From assembly GCF_965204015.1 (NCBI RefSeq), contig NZ_OZ241965.1, positions 453,714 to 517,713 of the forward strand: a stretch of 64,000 nt of DNA. The letters run 5' to 3'. Positions 1 through 56,189 of the stretch are shown one piece after another. Under the pieces are notes generated by a model. The model saw nothing but the letters and a program-made list of their open reading frames with translations. It was not told the DNA's origin and searched no databases. Position 1 is the stretch's first letter; each line of letters opens with the position of its first letter. The translations under genes and the position numbers were made by a program. Source of the DNA: Candidatus Poriferisocius sp. GTDB taxonomy: Bacteria > Actinomycetota > Acidimicrobiia > Acidimicrobiales > Bin134.

Positions 1-1
1 C

Positions 2-1044
2 GGGATCGCCCCCAAAGCCAGGATACTGCCCATCAGAATTGATCGCCTTGATAAGAACTGCAAGGACGACCTGTTCCCCACAGTGACACAAGCCATCAAC
101 GACGCCCGCACCAGCGGCGCGGACATCATCAACATATCGCTGCATTGGCCCCTAGAAGAATCTGATGGGACGACCAGAATCATCCTCGACTGCGCCCCCG
201 GCCCAGGCGGCAGAACCCAACGCATACCCCTAGGACCGTCAGCCTACTGCGTGTCCACGGACACGATGTGGTGGGCGATCCGAGTAGCCCGACGCCAAGG
301 AGTCGTGACAGTCGCCGCATCGGGAAACTGCGGCGACGACCACCCCGAGGAATGGGCCGACCCCGACGGGGACGGCCGCAGGGATTGGGTGCGAAGTGCC
401 GACAAAGACAACCCAAAAGGGGACTACGACAAGTCTGAATGGAAGTATGCGTGGGAGAACGATGGCTGCGACCGCCACAACCAGTTCGACTACCCCGCCT
501 CCTACCCAGAGACGATCTCCGTGGCAGCCATCAACGCGGACAGACAGCGGAGGGTTTCAAGCACGAGCAATGGATCCGTCGATGTAGCCGCCCCCGGCGG
601 CAAAATCCTAACCACACGATCCAGGCTTCCCCGCTACGAGGAGGCTGGCGGGACAGTGACCAGATCGGGGACATCCTTTGCCGCGCCGATGGTTTCCGCG
701 GCAATCGCCCACATGAAAGCCCGATACCCCCAAGCGACCCCCGAACAGATCACAACCGCCATCCTGGCAACTGCCCACCAAGACCCCAACGCCAACCCCC
801 GCTCCTTCAACACGGCGCTGTTGCACCTCGGCTTCCGCACCGACGACCTCGGCTACGGCATCATCAACCCCATAGCCGCCATCGAATACCTAGACCGTAG
901 GCTCAACCACCTGCCGACACCCACAACCGGCAACCAATTCACCGCCATCGCAACAGGCAGTGAGCATTCATGCGCCATCAAAACCGACAAAAGCATCGCA
1001 TGCTGGGGCAGCGACAATGTCCACGAAACCGCCCCACCTTTGGG
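2..1044 (+). CDS. Subtilisin-like S8 serine protease domain (5'-truncated by window edge), N-terminal part of an S8-RCC1 fusion; first RCC1-like blade at its end
   Basis: Frame open from position 2 (GIAPKARILPIRI); motifs ADIINISL, VAASGN, YPASY, VDVAAPG, catalytic SGTSFAAPMVS, GYGIINP; then PTPTT linker and QFTAIATGSEHSCAI...CWG blade. Confidence 0.9.
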
Positions 1045-51768: not shown

Positions 51769-52728
51769 CTAGTTGTAATGCCCATAGAGGTTGTGGACGC
51801 GTGAGGCGGGTGTGCCGCCGATGGCGGTGTGGTGGCGGTGGAGATTGTAGTGGTGGATCCAGGTTTGGAGTCGGCGTCGGCGGTCGGGTTCTGATCTGAA
51901 TGTGTAGTTGTAGAGGAACTCGTCTGCGATGGTGTGGTTGAAGCGCTCGGCTTTGCCGTTTGTCTGGGGCCTGTAGGGGCGGGTGAAGGTGTGGTCGATG
52001 GCTTGTCGGGCGAGGTGGGCGGCGAATTTCTTGGACCGGAAGTTCGCCCCGTTGTCGGTGATGATCTCGTCTACGGCCACGCCGATGGAGCGGAACCAGA
52101 TGCGGGCCCGCTCGAAGAAACCGCACAGGGTGTCGGCGGTCTCGTCGTCGAGGGCCTCGACGTAGGCGAGGCGGCTGTGGTCGTCGACGGCGACGTGGAG
52201 GTAGCTGTAGCCGACCCTGGGGCGGCGGCGGGCTCCGCGGGCCGGGGTGTTGGCCCTGCCGTGGGCTCTCCACCCGCCGCCGGGCGGCACCTTGTCGACT
52301 TTTTTGACGTCCAGATGGACCAGGTCGCCCGGATGGGGGCGCTCATAGCGGCGTATCACCTTGCCGGTGGGCCGGTCGATCCAGCTGAGCCGGTTGAGCC
52401 CGTTTCGCACCAGGATCTTGTGCACCGTCGACGCCGGCACCCCCAACCGGGCGCCGATGCGGGCCGGACCCCACCGCTTTTGGCGGCGCAGCCGGCACAC
52501 CCGCTCCTCCACAGCGGCGCAGGTGCGACGAGGCGACCGGCGCGGGCGAGACGACCGGTCCTTGAGCCCGGCCTCGCCGTGGGCCACCCAGCGGCTCCAC
52601 CACTTGGCCACCGTGGACCGCGACAGGCCCATCTGGGCGACCACATGGGCCTGGGGCATCCCGCCCTCGATCCGCTGGACCATCAACAAACGCCCAGCCG
52701 GGGTGAAAGGTGCATTAGCGTGCGACAT
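51769..52728 (-). CDS. IS481-family DDE transposase
   Basis: MSHANA..TP.GR, L.DRSSRP, RYER..PG.L.H.D.KK, VDDHSR, TDNG, YRPQTNGKAERF, YN..R.H. Confidence 0.93.
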   Translation of the reverse strand: MSHANAPFTPAGRLLMVQRIEGGMPQAHVVAQMGLSRSTVAKWWSRWVAHGEAGLKDRSSRPRRSPRRTCAAVEERVCRLRRQKRWGPARIGARLGVPASTVHKILVRNGLNRLSWIDRPTGKVIRRYERPHPGDLVHLDVKKVDKVPPGGGWRAHGRANTPARGARRRPRVGYSYLHVAVDDHSRLAYVEALDDETADTLCGFFERARIWFRSIGVAVDEIITDNGANFRSKKFAAHLARQAIDHTFTRPYRPQTNGKAERFNHTIADEFLYNYTFRSEPDRRRRLQTWIHHYNLHRHHTAIGGTPASRVHNLYGHYN

Positions 52729-52836
52729 CGAGCCTCCCTTGCTCAGTGCGGTAGTACGCAACCACCACACTGGCATCGGAGGCTCACCCAATAGCGGAGC
52801 TACCTGCCCGAGCTAACAACCTCTGTGGACAGAACA
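51774..52836 (-). mobile_element. IS481-family insertion sequence, 1063 bp, 6-bp ACTAGT target duplication
   Basis: Ends TGTaaTGcCCAtAGAGGTTGT and (reverse complement) TGTtcTGtCCAcAGAGGTTGT; actagt at 51768-51773 and 52837-52842. Confidence 0.92.
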
Positions 52837-53048: not shown

Positions 53049-54977
53049 TCAGCGGCCATGCAGCGACCAGTAATAGGCCACGACGACCTCGTTGAACTCC
53101 TGGGCAGTGAGCCTCCCGGCACCGAAGTCGCTGAGCGCCTGGTCGAACTCCGCTTTGTCGATCTTCGCATCGCCGTTGGCGTTATAGCGTGTAGCCGCAC
53201 CCGAGACAACCGGTGTCGGCGTCGGCGTGGGCGTGGGCGTCGGTGTCGGCGTGGGCGTCGGCGTGGGCCTGGTGTTGGAATCTATAGACGTGGGATCGTT
53301 AACTTCTAGCCATTGCCTGATGTTCCAGCAAGCTGCGACCACCAATCCACTCATGGCGGCACCAGTAACCAGAGCAGGCGCTGCTGCAACTCCCGTTGCT
53401 GCCAGCACAGCGGTTACAGCGACTCCCGTAGCCCATTGAGTAGCCTGGTTGCGGCAAATACCTTGCGTTCCAGCCTTAACGGATGCTTTCAGCGCTTGCT
53501 CAAAACCGTTGGTTATTGCAGTTCTGATTTCGCCTCTAATATCAGAACTCTTACCGACTACAATCTTTCCGTTTTCGACCACGTATTCCACACCGCCAAT
53601 AACAACTTTTCCGGCGTTGACGACATGTTCAACACCGTTGACAACAACTTTTGTGACTGTGCCTGCAATGTCTACCGGGGTGGCTTCTTTGAGTTTGGGC
53701 CTATGGCAGTCGTGGGTTTCGTCCTGTTTTTCCCAAACGGCTAGCTCATAGAGCGTGCGGGTAGTTGTTCCCACTGAATTCAAGTCGGTTGTTGTCGCAC
53801 CGGTGGTTATGTGTATCCACATCGGGCTAGGCAACGGCGGAGAGTAGTAGCCAGCTAGGCAAGGGTGGGCATCGTGGGTGGTGGTGCTTTCGTATTCTCC
53901 AGTTCCGACCGTGCGGTATCGAGTTTCGTATTTTGCCTGGGTTCCGTAGACCGGAATTTGCTCGTAGTTGTAGACATCCCTGGTCTTCGTGACGGTGCGG
54001 GTTCTCGTCTCATCACCGTAGACCGGAATTTGCTCGTAGTTGTAGACATCCCTGGTCTTCGTGACGGTGCGGGTTCTCGTCTCATCACCGTAGACCGGAA
54101 TTTGCTCGTAGTTGTAGACATCCCTGGTCTTCGTGACGGTGCGGGTTCTCGTCTCATCACCGTAGACCGGCTGGTTCTCGTAGTTGAAGACTTCTTCGGT
54201 TTTTGTGTAGGGCGGAATCCTGGTTTTCTTGTAGCCGGTGAACCTCTTGGTGACAACATCCTCATACTGCGGAACATTCACATAGTTGAAGGCCGGAACG
54301 TCGACATAGTTGAAAGCCGGGACCATTATGTAGCGCGGATCGACCCGAACCTGGATGCAACCGCCTCCTGGACCGCCAACGCATACTGTCTCATAGTTGA
54401 AGACTTCTTTTGACCTGGTAAAAGGTGCGACCCGCTCTTTTTTGGTGTAGGGCGGGACCCTCACCTGCTTGTTGCCTATGAACCTCTTTGTGACAACATC
54501 CTCATACTGCGGAACATTGACATAGTTGAAAGCCGGAATCGAGATGTACCGCGGGTCAACCCGGACCTGCTGATAACCCACAATCACCTGAACGGTGTAT
54601 TCCTCTTCGTCCTCGTAGGTCTCTGTGAACGGCGCTATCCGGTCGCCGTTCTTGTAACCGGTGACCACCTGAACGGTGTATTCCTCTTCGTCCTCGTAGG
54701 TCTCTGTGAACGGCGCTATCCGGTCGCCGTTCTTGTAACCGGTGATGCCTTGAACGGTGTATTCCTCTTCGTCCTCGTAGGTCTCTGTGAACGGCGCTAT
54801 CCGGTCGCCGTTCTTGTAACCGGTGACCACCCGCTCCTCGCCCACCTTGACCTGGTAGGGCTCCCTCCTTGTGATTTCTGTTCTCGTGGTGGTCGGATCG
54901 TGAGCGCTGGCAGTAGCGGGCAACAATGCTGCCGCAACACAAAACACGGCAAACAGACTGAGAAAACGGCGGGCCAT
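53049..54977 (-). CDS. Secreted repeat protein: signal peptide, beta-rich repeat stalk, low-GC Cys-flanked hydrophobic domain, PT linker, EF-hand/dockerin-like C-terminal module
   Basis: SD aaggagg before ATG 54977; MARRFLSLFAVFCVAAALLPATASA signal peptide; tandem 27-aa and 24-aa repeats; (PT)9; YNANGDAKIDKAE. Confidence 0.8.
   Translation of the reverse strand: MARRFLSLFAVFCVAAALLPATASAHDPTTTRTEITRREPYQVKVGEERVVTGYKNGDRIAPFTETYEDEEEYTVQGITGYKNGDRIAPFTETYEDEEEYTVQVVTGYKNGDRIAPFTETYEDEEEYTVQVIVGYQQVRVDPRYISIPAFNYVNVPQYEDVVTKRFIGNKQVRVPPYTKKERVAPFTRSKEVFNYETVCVGGPGGGCIQVRVDPRYIMVPAFNYVDVPAFNYVNVPQYEDVVTKRFTGYKKTRIPPYTKTEEVFNYENQPVYGDETRTRTVTKTRDVYNYEQIPVYGDETRTRTVTKTRDVYNYEQIPVYGDETRTRTVTKTRDVYNYEQIPVYGTQAKYETRYRTVGTGEYESTTTHDAHPCLAGYYSPPLPSPMWIHITTGATTTDLNSVGTTTRTLYELAVWEKQDETHDCHRPKLKEATPVDIAGTVTKVVVNGVEHVVNAGKVVIGGVEYVVENGKIVVGKSSDIRGEIRTAITNGFEQALKASVKAGTQGICRNQATQWATGVAVTAVLAATGVAAAPALVTGAAMSGLVVAACWNIRQWLEVNDPTSIDSNTRPTPTPTPTPTPTPTPTPTPVVSGAATRYNANGDAKIDKAEFDQALSDFGAGRLTAQEFNEVVVAYYWSLHGR
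53211..53267 (-). repeat. Pro-Thr linker microsatellite
   Basis: ggcgtc/ggcgtg/ggtgtc hexamer run encoding PTPTPT. Confidence 0.85.
53944..54170 (-). repeat. 72-bp perfect tandem repeat x3 (YGDETRTRTVTKTRDVYNYEQIPV)
   Basis: Units begin at 53944, 54016, 54088; partial at 54160. Confidence 0.95.
54585..54831 (-). repeat. 81-bp near-perfect tandem repeat x3 (VVTGYKNGDRIAPFTETYEDEEEYTVQ)
   Basis: tgaacggtgtattcc recurs at 54589, 54670, 54751. Confidence 0.95.
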
Positions 54978-55154
54978 TGGGCGGCCTCCTTCGGGCGGTC
55001 GGGTAATTCCGACTACAGAAACCCGCGGCCAAGCCCGAAGGAGACCAAGGTCAAGCCCAATCCATATCGGAGGGGACGAGCCAATACCCGAGCCGCTAAC
55101 ACGCTTGACCGCAGGGGAAAACCCCACGGGTTTCTGTAGTCGGAGCCAACTCTA
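54976..55154 (-). promoter_or_regulatory. Structured 5' leader (candidate cis-regulatory RNA) with upstream -10 box
   Basis: 21-bp inverted repeat 55008-55028/55124-55144, inner stem 55049-55056/55103-55110, anti-SD 55033-55047 complementary to 54982-54996, TAGAGT -10 at 55149-55154. Confidence 0.65.
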
Positions 55155-55269
55155 TACCTACTTTTGAGGCGTCCGCAAGCGCTGCCAGCCCGATCTCCCC
55201 CAAATAGCTTTGTATAAAGCCGAATAGGTGTTAGGTTGGCTGTATGGCCCCCGCTTGGGAACTCGACTG

Positions 55270-55509
55270 ATGCCCCGCTTGTCGCCGCTCGTGCGCCAGC
55301 AAAGGGCCGAAGCGCTGGCGGCGGTCGCCTCTATAGGCCGCCAGGTCGCTGCCGACACAGAAGCGCTGACAGCCGCCATGAGCCACGCCAACAGCGTCGG
55401 CTGCTCCTGGCACGAGATCGCCCGCCATGCCCCCGTGAACCGGGCTACCGCCCAACGCCGAGTCAAGCGGTGGCAGCAAACCCCCAACACAACCGAAAGG
55501 CAGCCATGA
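55270..55509 (+). CDS. Small helix-turn-helix protein
   Basis: A...G.SWHEIA....VNRATAQRR HTH-like motif; stop overlaps next ATG (ATGA). Confidence 0.6.
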   Translation: MPRLSPLVRQQRAEALAAVASIGRQVAADTEALTAAMSHANSVGCSWHEIARHAPVNRATAQRRVKRWQQTPNTTERQP

Positions 55510-55946
55510 GCCCCCAACCCACAACGCCACACCAAACACCGCCCACGATTGCACCGCCCGCAGGCCGCCGCTTGGTCGTTTTTGCGGCGGTCGTTATAGC
55601 TCTAGGGGGGGCGCTGTTGCCAGTAGCGCCGGAACTGACCATAACCCTTATGGGTCTGCTTGCGGTCTGCTGCCTCGGCTTCTCGGCCCGCTATGCCGTG
55701 TTTTGGCTCAAGCACCGCCCGCTGCCACGCGATTACGACGACAAGGGCAAGCCCAAACCGAACAAAATCGAGGATTTGCTGCTCGTTGTATTTGCGCAAT
55801 TACCACTCTTGGCTTGGGCATTATTGAAGGGTGGTAGCGGGTTGAACGTGTGGTGGCTACTGGCAGTGGCGCTTATGGCACCCTTCTATGCTCTCGGTAA
55901 GTTTGCCCTGTTCCGCTGGTGGCTTCCCCGCAAAATTAGCCGGTGA
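55506..55946 (+). CDS. Hypothetical 4-TM membrane protein
   Basis: Translationally coupled to HTH gene; four hydrophobic segments. Confidence 0.6.
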   Translation: MSPQPTTPHQTPPTIAPPAGRRLVVFAAVVIALGGALLPVAPELTITLMGLLAVCCLGFSARYAVFWLKHRPLPRDYDDKGKPKPNKIEDLLLVVFAQLPLLAWALLKGGSGLNVWWLLAVALMAPFYALGKFALFRWWLPRKISR

Positions 55947-55961
55947 GCTGGGGCGGGTCGC

Positions 55962-56189
55962 CTAGTTCGGCCAGCGCCGGTTAATCCACCGGCTAGCGGA
56001 TTCGTCCAGCACGGCAACCACAAAGCGAACCAGCATCCCCAACAAGAGAGCCGCAACCAAACCGGCTATGGCGCTGGCAACAACAGGCAGCCCCACAGAC
56101 TCAAACTGACCCCAGAACCAGCGTGGGGTAGCCAGAACGGCAAGAAGGAACGCTAAAAGGGGAGACATGGCTTCTAGAACAGCACCCAA
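55962..56189 (-). CDS. Small hydrophobic 2-TM protein (possibly degraded)
   Basis: 75-aa ORF with two hydrophobic stretches. Confidence 0.4.
   Translation of the reverse strand: MGAVLEAMSPLLAFLLAVLATPRWFWGQFESVGLPVVASAIAGLVAALLLGMLVRFVVAVLDESASRWINRRWPN

Follow-up and report, generated by a model that had tools for sequence, protein, structure and literature searches.

The window analysed here, a stretch of 64,000 nucleotides from the genome of a Candidatus Poriferisocius sp. (contig NZ_OZ241965.1, positions 453,714 to 517,713), carries on its minus strand the gene of a protein termed P0001. The favoured reading, to which a probability of about 0.62 is given, is that P0001 is exported and anchored in the membrane, and that its N-terminal ~330 residues fold back as an unbranched beta-hairpin standing on the cell surface as a rod. 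The motifs of this region occur in mirrored complementary order and at mirrored spacings around a central Cys loop, and copy numbers change in a balanced way among the relatives. A pairing of the N-terminal arm with the C-terminal arm is well supported by the complementary order, the mirrored spacings and the balanced gain and loss of units.

Four short motifs recur through the stalk region. R[IV]xP[FYR] is present eight times in P0001 (residues 59, 86, 113, 139, 173, 182, 211 and 253), as is [AV][FY]NY (residues 149, 192, 221, 229, 263, 287, 311 and 335), while xxG[YN] (residues 51, 78, 105, 132, 166 and 246) and P[QV]Y (residues 156, 236, 270, 294, 318 and 342) are each present six times. 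In addition, the region holds three copies of an acidic strand, ETYEDEEEYTVQ, starting at residues 65, 92 and 119, three copies of a basic strand, DETRTRTVTKTR, starting at residues 274, 298 and 322, and the sequence CVGGPGGGC (C-x7-C) at residues 199-207. These are the elements that an initial annotation of the DNA had reported for 53860-54905, corresponding to residues 25-373 of P0001, and a regular-expression count on P0001 found every one of its motif counts exact. The gene and the parts of the stalk are arranged as follows, tandem periods being those given by Tandem Repeats Finder (TRF):

53049..54977, minus strand: whole gene of P0001, 642 codons and stop (from the list of open reading frames and the translation)
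54585..54827, minus strand: outgoing arm, outer part, three 27-residue units VTGYKNGDRIAPFTETYEDEEEYTVQx, residues 51-131 (TRF period 81)
54168..54584, minus strand: inner self-complementary region, residues 132-270 (from motif positions and facing pairs)
54357..54383, minus strand: apex loop CVGGPGGGC, residues 199-207, predicted disulfide turn (break in the structural model; Cys pair central in relatives)
53952..54167, minus strand: returning arm, outer part, three 24-residue units VYGDETRTRTVTKTRDVYNYEQIP, residues 271-342 (TRF period 72)

Writing the R[IV]xP-type motif as O, the [AV][FY]NY-type motif as C, xxG[YN] as G and P[QV]Y as P gives the string GOGOGOGOCPGOOC|OCCPGOCPCPCPCP, where the bar marks the C-x7-C loop. 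When the string is folded at the bar, between the motifs at residues 192 and 211, all 28 motifs come to lie opposite their complement, an outcome reached by 0 of 20,000 shuffles. The O/C string alone is also perfect, with p = 0.015 against shuffles whose fold point was likewise optimised. In the inner part, the facing pairs 139/263, 149/253, 173/229, 182/221 and 192/211 have residue numbers i and j adding up to 405-407. Across the three outer rungs the sum drops to 403, 400 and 397, because the units of the N-terminal arm are 27 residues long and those of the C-terminal arm 24. The inner region also contains a 31-residue module in two copies (148-178 and 228-258), one on each side of the apex.

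The nesting described in the initial annotation, with two types of brackets in which O and G motifs act as openers and C and P motifs as closers, was reproduced by a stack parser run on the 28 motifs, which returned identical pairs. Likewise, its three acidic strands facing three basic strands are in register by i+j: in the unbranched register the acidic strands at 65-76, 92-103 and 119-130 lie opposite the basic strands at 322-333, 298-309 and 274-285. The further proposal that the ribbon is zipped by charge stands for these strands, but not more widely. The net charge per whole unit is -5 for the 27-residue acidic unit versus 0 for the 24-residue unit, and other subfamilies, inspected by eye, display no such charge pattern, so charge is not a general zipper and the charge matching in P0001 is local only.

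At the DNA level, the outer repeats comprise 3.0 copies of 81 nucleotides with 95% matches and 3.4 copies of 72 nucleotides with 96% matches, and they are young. No inverted DNA repeats are present in 53800-54950, which rules out a DNA palindrome as the source of the symmetry and makes the symmetry a property of the protein, not of the DNA.

Relatives were collected with P0001 as seed, yielding 16 proteins at E <= 0.001 in 5.8 billion clusters and 121 matches among 1.84 billion representatives, most of the latter only over the C-terminal residues 520-640. A second search seeded with P0016 provided 43 more proteins, and a scan of species genomes 18 more loci. A Pfam family over the repeats was found in none of the 11 homologues scanned. 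The arrays of these relatives are of several types. Pure runs take the form OOOOOOOOO|CCCCCCCCC in P0016, P0134 and L011, extend to 11|11 in P0133, encoded on a 3.9-Mb chromosome, and occur as 8|8, 7|7, 5|5 and 3|3 in further relatives. The reverse order, OCCCCCCC|OOOOOOOC, is seen in P0148 and L022, and the array of P0147 also begins with closers. Alternating arrays of 10|10 to 13|13 are found in P0160, P0161, P0143, P0145 and P0146. Finally, some arrays are irregular and exactly mirrored, as in P0162 (OCOCCOC|OCOOCOC), P0168 (OOOOC|OCCCC), P0167 (OCCC|OOOC) and P0006 (CCOOC|OCCOO).

The symmetry was scored in a blind test, in which each array was split so as to maximise the likeness of the reversed complement of its left part to its right part, and the Cys residues were not used. 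There were 58 arrays, and 9 of them, located at the very start of an open reading frame (ORF) and likely incomplete, were set aside. Among the remaining 49, 29 were perfect complement-palindromes and 46 were within one edit of it. The best blind centre fell on a C-x(2-30)-C pair in 39/49 arrays, such a pair being present anywhere in 48/49. For 23 arrays, equally optimised shuffles matched the score in <= 5% of shuffles. Taking the largest gap between motifs as the fold point was tried and dropped, as it misplaced the fold in many proteins, including P0001, and the resulting correlations were meaningless.

Spacings carry the same symmetry. When read outward from the centre in the 28 perfect arrays, the spacings of the two arms matched better as mirrored than as parallel in 14, equally well in 14 and worse in none. 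For example, the spacings are [10,9,24,10,26,27,27] versus [10,8,24,10,24,24,24] in P0001, [10,11,21,10,11,10] on both arms of P0162, and [18,9,11,11,11,11] versus [14,8,10,10,10,10] in L015. In most pure-run arrays the spacing of the opener run exceeds that of the facing closer run, usually by one residue (9/8, 11/10, 25/24), as compared in P0016, P0133, L011, L022, L015 and P0151; in P0001 it is 27/24. A conserved bulge at the x-P step is suggested.

Gain and loss of units are matched as well. P0002, 70% identical to P0001, has two acidic and two basic units versus 3+3 in P0001, and L023 (6|6) has two closers and two openers fewer than L022 (8|8). P0045 contains an insertion of eight residues in the second unit of the N-terminal arm counted from the centre, and an extra short unit is seen by eye at the mirrored place of the C-terminal arm. 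In a second subfamily, the same core, R[VI]AP[FY]..C..C..[VA][YF]N[YW], is flanked by arm repeats of quite another sequence, with units of 18 residues in the N-terminal arm (VPVY..VP..V.V.RTRE) and 19 residues in the C-terminal arm (GTRTETYT.TE...V....). Here, the arms are equal in 5/10 proteins (P0008, P0014 and P0024 with 5:5, P0010 with 3:3 and P0020 with 6:6) and off by one in the other five (4:5 in three, 5:4 in P0011 and 3:2 in P0022), and we read two of the 4:5 counts as the result of how the regular expression handles a terminal or degenerate unit. In P0005, five DVYGWVTx units versus five xQVWxKTGT units are counted by eye. Comparative evidence in dozens of relatives thus supports the proposal of the initial annotation that the two arms, outgoing and returning, lie antiparallel on either side of the Cys loop.

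As to distribution, matches to P0001, with any part of the protein counted, occur in 17/24 other genomes of the genus and in 0/16 genomes of the order's other families. The metagenome-assembled genomes with O/C arrays, many of them at chromosome level, belong to Candidatus Poriferisodalis, Poriferisocius and Aldehydirespirator and to other Acidimicrobiia/Acidimicrobiales, and the family is confined to sponge-associated Acidimicrobiia. The hairpin module is also seen inside exported proteins with subtilase, Calx-beta, He_PIG, pilin-like and metallopeptidase-like parts (P0147, P0142, P0149, P0154, P0166 and P0067). Precomputed Pfam labels of proteins in which the stalk is inserted include PF00082, PF03160, PF05345 and PF00041, and the metallopeptidase match of P0067 is weak. 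Being inserted in such diverse exported proteins, the module behaves as portable and not as tied to one protein family.

AlphaFold2 models were consulted with caution owing to their low confidence, and only their secondary-structure strings were used. For P0001, assignment with Define Secondary Structure of Proteins (DSSP) gives a nearly continuous strand from residue 38 to 356 with one clear turn at 200-206. The strands at 143-192 and 215-263 are unbroken, this inner region is the best part of the model, with a predicted local distance difference test (pLDDT) score of 53-63, and the strand breaks of the two arms are roughly mirrored. The model of P0133, built from 14 alignment rows with a mean pLDDT of 53, has a moderately confident hairpin (246-269/276-298) around the Cys loop at pLDDT 64-79, with 23 residues per strand, extending from the final opener up to the first closer. 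A complex prediction of arm 46-135 versus arm 266-348 scored 0.00, was run without controls and counts neither way on binding. Of the structure prediction that the initial annotation had proposed as a check, the single long hairpin is thus drawn for P0001, at low confidence and without branches.

Several observations weigh against a long unbranched hairpin. The confidence of the models is low, with a mean pLDDT of 45.7 and a predicted template modelling (pTM) score of 0.19 for the AlphaFold2 model of P0001, built from an eight-row alignment, and a pTM of 0.17 for its ESM Atlas model; in the P0133 model, the closer run at 300-379 is coil at pLDDT ~30 and unpaired with the openers. Because the relatives are not independent of one another, their counts exaggerate how many independent cases there are. 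Arrays such as P0067 (9|12), L014 (9|11), P0147 (9|12 with relaxed motifs) and P0155 (4|7) are unbalanced, balance is also missing in P0150, P0165, L018, P0164 and P0139, and in the second subfamily P0022 (3:2) and P0011 (5:4) belong here. Some of the unbalanced arrays lie on short metagenome contigs, where repeats are possibly collapsed, and L014 comes from a chromosome-level assembly; unbalanced arms may reflect assembly collapse, intermediates of length change or real overhangs. The balance of openers and closers in homologues, which the initial annotation had made a test of its proposal, holds to within one edit in most arrays and fails in several, including P0067 and L014. Covariation, another of its checks, gave a divided answer. 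The mutual information of facing units, 29.45, exceeds that of within-protein permutation (22.77 +/- 0.48; 0/200) but not that of controls in which the partner was shifted by 1-4 units (23.5-30.6), and for this reason no exact register is claimed. The inner region of P0001 also parses as local hairpins, and P0019 and P0007 hold a single 31-residue module without a Cys loop; should these genes be complete, the module would be able to turn on its own. Finally, we know of no solved precedent for an isolated two-stranded ribbon of 160 residues, and such a ribbon may need further association.

The most probable of the alternative folds concerns the tip. The initial annotation had concluded that the ribbon ends in three branches; in such a fold, the outer three rungs would form a two-stranded stem and the inner residues 132-270 would form three hairpin branches (132-156, 166-236 and 246-270), giving a pronged tip, or else a cruciform with each 31-residue module folded on itself around EDVVTKRF. 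Of all the pairings, only the three-branched one places every opener ahead of its closer, and it would fit the constant 14-residue opener-to-closer units at 139-152, 182-195, 211-224 and 253-266 as well as the single modules of P0019 and P0007, in which the module may turn on itself. Yet, if either motif may come first, the P0001 string allows 24 complete non-crossing pairings, all of which join the three outer rungs across the array and differ only within 132-270, and one of them is the plain unbranched hairpin with each motif opposite its complement. An opener-first rule is not general either, as P0006 (CCOOC|OCCOO) starts with closers and ends with openers, and it is likewise broken in P0148, P0147 and P0143. 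The low-confidence AlphaFold2 model lacks turns where branches would need them, and the spacings of the inner region are mirrored across the Cys loop. In addition, EDVVTKRF (159-166) is complementary in charge to its second copy (239-246) when the ends are matched antiparallel (D160-R245 and R165-D240, i+j = 405). As for the single-module relatives, both may be incomplete, P0019 being a fragment of 90 residues and P0007 having no signal peptide; complete single-module relatives that would decide between the two folds were sought, and none was decisive. The three-branched tip is thus unsupported and considered unlikely. An unbranched ribbon appears several times as probable, in light of the family-wide rule for arrays that are unable to pair locally, the mirrored inner spacings, and the model without branches together with the EDVVTKRF match.

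The complementary order could also arise from contacts between molecules, as an antiparallel homodimer of extended chains, or be displayed by hairpins bundled as a trimer or a beta-barrel-like needle. As a matter of logic, an antiparallel duplex satisfies a complement-palindrome as well as a hairpin does, and solved long beta-hairpins are usually stabilised by oligomerisation, the T4 gp37 needle being a trimer (PMC6957217). Weak, non-significant Foldseek rows for P0001, which are not evidence, list pore-state beta-hairpin proteins and phage tail parts. However, the Gly/Pro-rich C-x7-C loop lies exactly at the centre, which suits a turn and would be useless in a duplex, and the chains of a duplex would have their anchors at opposite ends; pairing between molecules is rated as somewhat less likely still than a branched tip. 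Least likely, and in our view improbable, is an absence of any long-range pairing, with local units such as stacked beta-arches or a disordered low-complexity spacer, and with the symmetry as a by-product of repeat evolution. All predictions being of low confidence, the alternating arrays being readable as tandem local hairpins, and several arrays being unbalanced would all agree with it. Pure-run arrays, however, cannot pair locally and are nevertheless equal (9|9, 11|11, 8|8, 7|7, 5|5 and 3|3), irregularities are mirrored as in P0162, in 39/49 arrays the blind centre falls on the Cys loop, no DNA palindrome is present, and the strongly conserved aromatic and Pro motifs are unlike disorder. 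The preferred reading remains the unbranched hairpin within one chain.

What follows is our inference, both for the structure (arms touching as beta-strands, a disulfide, no branches, and the membrane topology) and for the function. P0001 would be exported and held at the membrane by a hydrophobic helical hairpin, and its outgoing arm (residues ~38-199) would run antiparallel to the returning arm (~207-356). The turn would be the C-x7-C loop, closed by a disulfide and located at the far tip, so that the two stalk ends meet at the base. Pairing would be set by R-[IV]-x-P-aromatic against [AV]-[FY]-N-Y and by x-x-G-[YN] against P-[QV]-Y, with either motif allowed on either arm if its complement is at the mirrored place, and in the three outer rungs an acidic strand would additionally lie opposite a basic strand. 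In its simplest form, the structure would be a single unbranched two-stranded beta-ribbon ~50 nm long, and the length of the rod would evolve by matched duplications and deletions in both arms. As to function, our best guess is a stiff surface rod, variable in length, that would serve the sponge symbiont as a spacer or spike. A more far-reaching proposal, which is tentative and to which we give well below even odds, is that the family is a protein counterpart of base pairing, with modular motifs usable in either order, family-wide hairpin rods of 0 to 13 rungs and up to ~50 nm, compensatory duplications, a metal-clasped end, and a role as a metal-dependent or metal-capturing spike.

Three elements bear on the metal of this proposal, which would sit at the base of the stalk:

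54903..54977, minus strand: signal peptide, residues 1-25 (MARRFLSLFAVFCVAAALLPATASA) (hydrophobic window 1-26; A-x-A before His26; predicted cleavage)
54900..54902, minus strand: His26, with which the mature protein is predicted to begin (A-x-A|H[DEP] also seen in relatives of otherwise different repeat types; putative metal ligand)
53859..53876, minus strand: stalk-base motif H368-D-A-H371-P-C373 (His/Cys positions; recurrent in relatives)

The predicted mature N-terminus, ATASA|HDP as read from the sequence with its predicted cleavage, would make His26 the first residue. The pattern A-x-A|H[DEP] is found in P0002-P0006, P0009-P0011, P0018, P0020, P0024, P0143, P0145, P0146, P0148, P0152, P0159, P0168, L015, L016, L022, L023 and others, including relatives with otherwise different repeats, and is absent from P0033 and P0167. 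Among 32 relatives chosen for their N-terminal His, 22 have H-x(1-5)-H exactly at the stalk end, usually beside a Cys. When the register of the stem is extrapolated (i+j ~396), His26 falls opposite A370, between H368 and H371. The His residues of P0001 are at 26, 368, 371, 389, 422, 425, 451 and 640, none of them inside the arms, and candidates for second ligands of the putative metal are H368/H371 and H422/H425, beside C373 and C424. Conservation of a His directly after the signal peptide is known to mark metal-binding proteins (PMC12537917, PMC10952591). The conserved His at the mature N-terminus, together with the His/Cys motifs at the stalk end, suggests a metal clasp: a metal on the N-terminal histidine would hold the hairpin closed at its open end, where the stalk has its base.

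Beyond the stalk, the protein contains the following parts:

53703..53861, minus strand: juxta-stalk domain Cys373-Cys424, ending in T-H422-D-C424-H425 (53703-53714) (C424 invariant in 8/8 sequences)
53550..53690, minus strand: short beta repeats VVNGVEHVVNAGKVVIGGVEYVVENGKIVVG, residues ~430-476 (model strands 440-474)
53325..53456, minus strand: hydrophobic helical hairpin W515-W551, flanked by Cys508/Cys550, predicted membrane anchor (Kyte-Doolittle 515-540 and 530-551)
53211..53272, minus strand: Pro-Thr linker (TRF period 6/18)
53052..53210, minus strand: small C-terminal helical domain, residues 590-642, with loop NANGDAKIDKAEF (model helices 608-619 and 625-640)

The juxta-stalk domain is modelled at pLDDT ~45-60. 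Between stalk and anchor, an 11-residue beta repeat V-x-x-G-V-E-[HY]-V-V-x-x-G-K-V-V (VVNGVEHVV..) is seen, which is expanded several-fold in P0009 and P0022, and in P0001 an amphipathic helix follows these short repeats. The hydrophobic helical hairpin at 515-551 comprises 37 residues and is rich in Ala and Gly, with model helices at 511-527 and 532-560; C508 and a Cys after the hydrophobic stretch are both present in 8/8 aligned sequences, the former being invariant. In relatives, FN3 domains lie C-terminal to this hairpin, so both of its ends may be outside the cell; as a means of anchoring an actinobacterial surface protein, it would be unusual. The six Cys of mature P0001 form three sequential pairs, which fits an exported disulfide-bonded protein. 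Residues ~560-640 are the only matching part for many otherwise unrelated proteins. In many such proteins the C-terminal helical domain, 53 residues long, is preceded by Pro-Thr linkers, and it ends a 1315-residue ORF elsewhere in the genome (L002 = G000:C1:1258232-1261420). Its loop NANGDAKIDKAEF is one that we take to be EF-hand-like.

Read from its first GTG, the minus-strand ORF spans 53049-55127. The translation start is likely the ATG at 54977, and the closest homologue, P0002, begins at the same Met. The gene is present in one copy in its genome, a single contig of 4,056,430 bases, and its surroundings consist of housekeeping genes and one IS481-type transposase ORF (rve, HTH, LZ_Tnp_IS481; 51769-52791, minus strand) just downstream. 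G+C is 0.58 in 54001-56000 versus ~0.65 elsewhere, and the gene may be located in a small variable island.

Searches of Pfam, NCBIfam and the PDB revealed no relative of the stalk. A Pfam hmmscan of P0001 at E <= 1 returned only two entries, DUF7005 with E 0.15 and Plasmo_rep with E 0.8, each far under its cut-off, the NCBIfam scan returned only low-complexity rows on the Pro-Thr linker, also far under the cut-offs, and the sole match of a PDB sequence search was Pro-Thr low complexity. Matches to internalin and ClfB were rejected as spurious, being caused by the low complexity of the same linker. Foldseek against the PDB found no match at E <= 0.001 for the models of P0001 and P0133, and ESM Atlas gave no usable feature hit for P0001 and only structural neighbours with a template modelling (TM) score < 0.33. 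As far as searched, the stalk family appears to be undescribed, without a Pfam, NCBIfam or PDB relative. Likewise, neither a fold of this kind nor the motif grammar was found in Pfam, NCBIfam, the PDB or the literature, in which subscription journals are mostly uncovered; within these sources, including the PDB by both sequence and fold, the view of the initial annotation that no described fold is built in this way holds.

If the arms pair, the family would offer a simple, readable sequence code for long two-stranded beta rods, a test bed for the rules of beta-sheet pairing and for the co-evolution of copy number between distant repeat arrays, and a basis for the design of rigid protein spacers with a chosen length. 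Moreover, it represents an undescribed family inserted in many exported proteins of sponge-associated Acidimicrobiia, where it stands beside FN3, Calx-beta, subtilase and metalloprotease-like parts, and little is known so far about the cell surface of these bacteria and their interactions with the host. For biochemical work, the conserved histidine at the N-terminus offers a direct handle.

Several known systems share single traits with P0001. Surface rods of near-identical tandem repeats whose number and length vary by strain are described among periscope proteins and single-layer beta-sheet rods, namely SasG, Aap and Sgo_0707 (PMC8201768, PMC4458895). P0001 has this trait of periscope proteins, its DNA repeats being 95-96% matched and its copy number being 3+3 versus 2+2 in P0002. 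However, periscope proteins consist of domains folded head to tail with a functional domain at the far end, whereas the centre of P0001 has only the Cys loop. Moreover, the arms of P0001 are complementary and not equivalent, so that a change in length would need matched changes in both, unlike in periscope proteins. As regards the base, an N-terminal His can chelate a metal whatever the fold, as in the histidine brace of lytic polysaccharide monooxygenases and CopC, the mono-histidine brace of YcnI and the 'anglerases' (PMC12537917). These proteins, like P0001, have a conserved His directly after the cleavage site of the signal peptide; they display no sequence or fold relation to P0001, in which metal binding is putative, and in P0001 the His, unlike in these proteins, would sit where the stalk ends meet. 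The nearest ESM Atlas clusters are YTV repeat proteins of Planctomycetota (PF07639), which also consist of Thr/Val-rich beta repeats of unassigned role, but TM values of 0.25-0.29 are no evidence of a shared fold and P0001 has no Pfam match to them at E <= 1.

The matched arms proposed for P0001 have a counterpart in streptococcal antigen I/II (SpaP, SspB and BspA), in which repeats of the N-proximal A-region associate with later P-region repeats, which would be the same topology and the same logic. For such a fold-back stalk in P0001 the comparative evidence is strong, and the structure predictions are of low confidence. The antigen I/II stalk also has a lock between its N- and C-terminal parts, described in PMC7732690, that is comparable to the metal clasp proposed for P0001. 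Yet, its arms are an alpha-helix and a polyproline-II helix, whereas both arms of P0001 resemble beta-strands, and its tip is the globular ligand-binding V domain, whereas that of P0001 is a loop closed by Cys nine residues long. Furthermore, antigen I/II is anchored by LPXTG, of which the expression LP.[TSA]G finds none in P0001, where the hydrophobic hairpin is present instead. An antigen I/II domain was sought in P0001 with no Pfam or NCBIfam match, no Ala-rich repeats and no PDB sequence match. Bartual et al. (2010) reportedly described the T4 gp37 needle as a very long and thin beta structure, every chain of which extends to the tip and then returns. Metal-binding histidines are essential for its folding (PMC6957217). 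It is an obligate trimer with seven His-bound irons along the needle and needs chaperones, whereas the arms of P0001 are without His, and near the stalk only His 26, 368 and 371 at its base are present; no sequence or fold match links the two. P0001, a member of neither system, is closest in its logic to the fold-back stalk of antigen I/II and in its shape perhaps to the gp37 needle.

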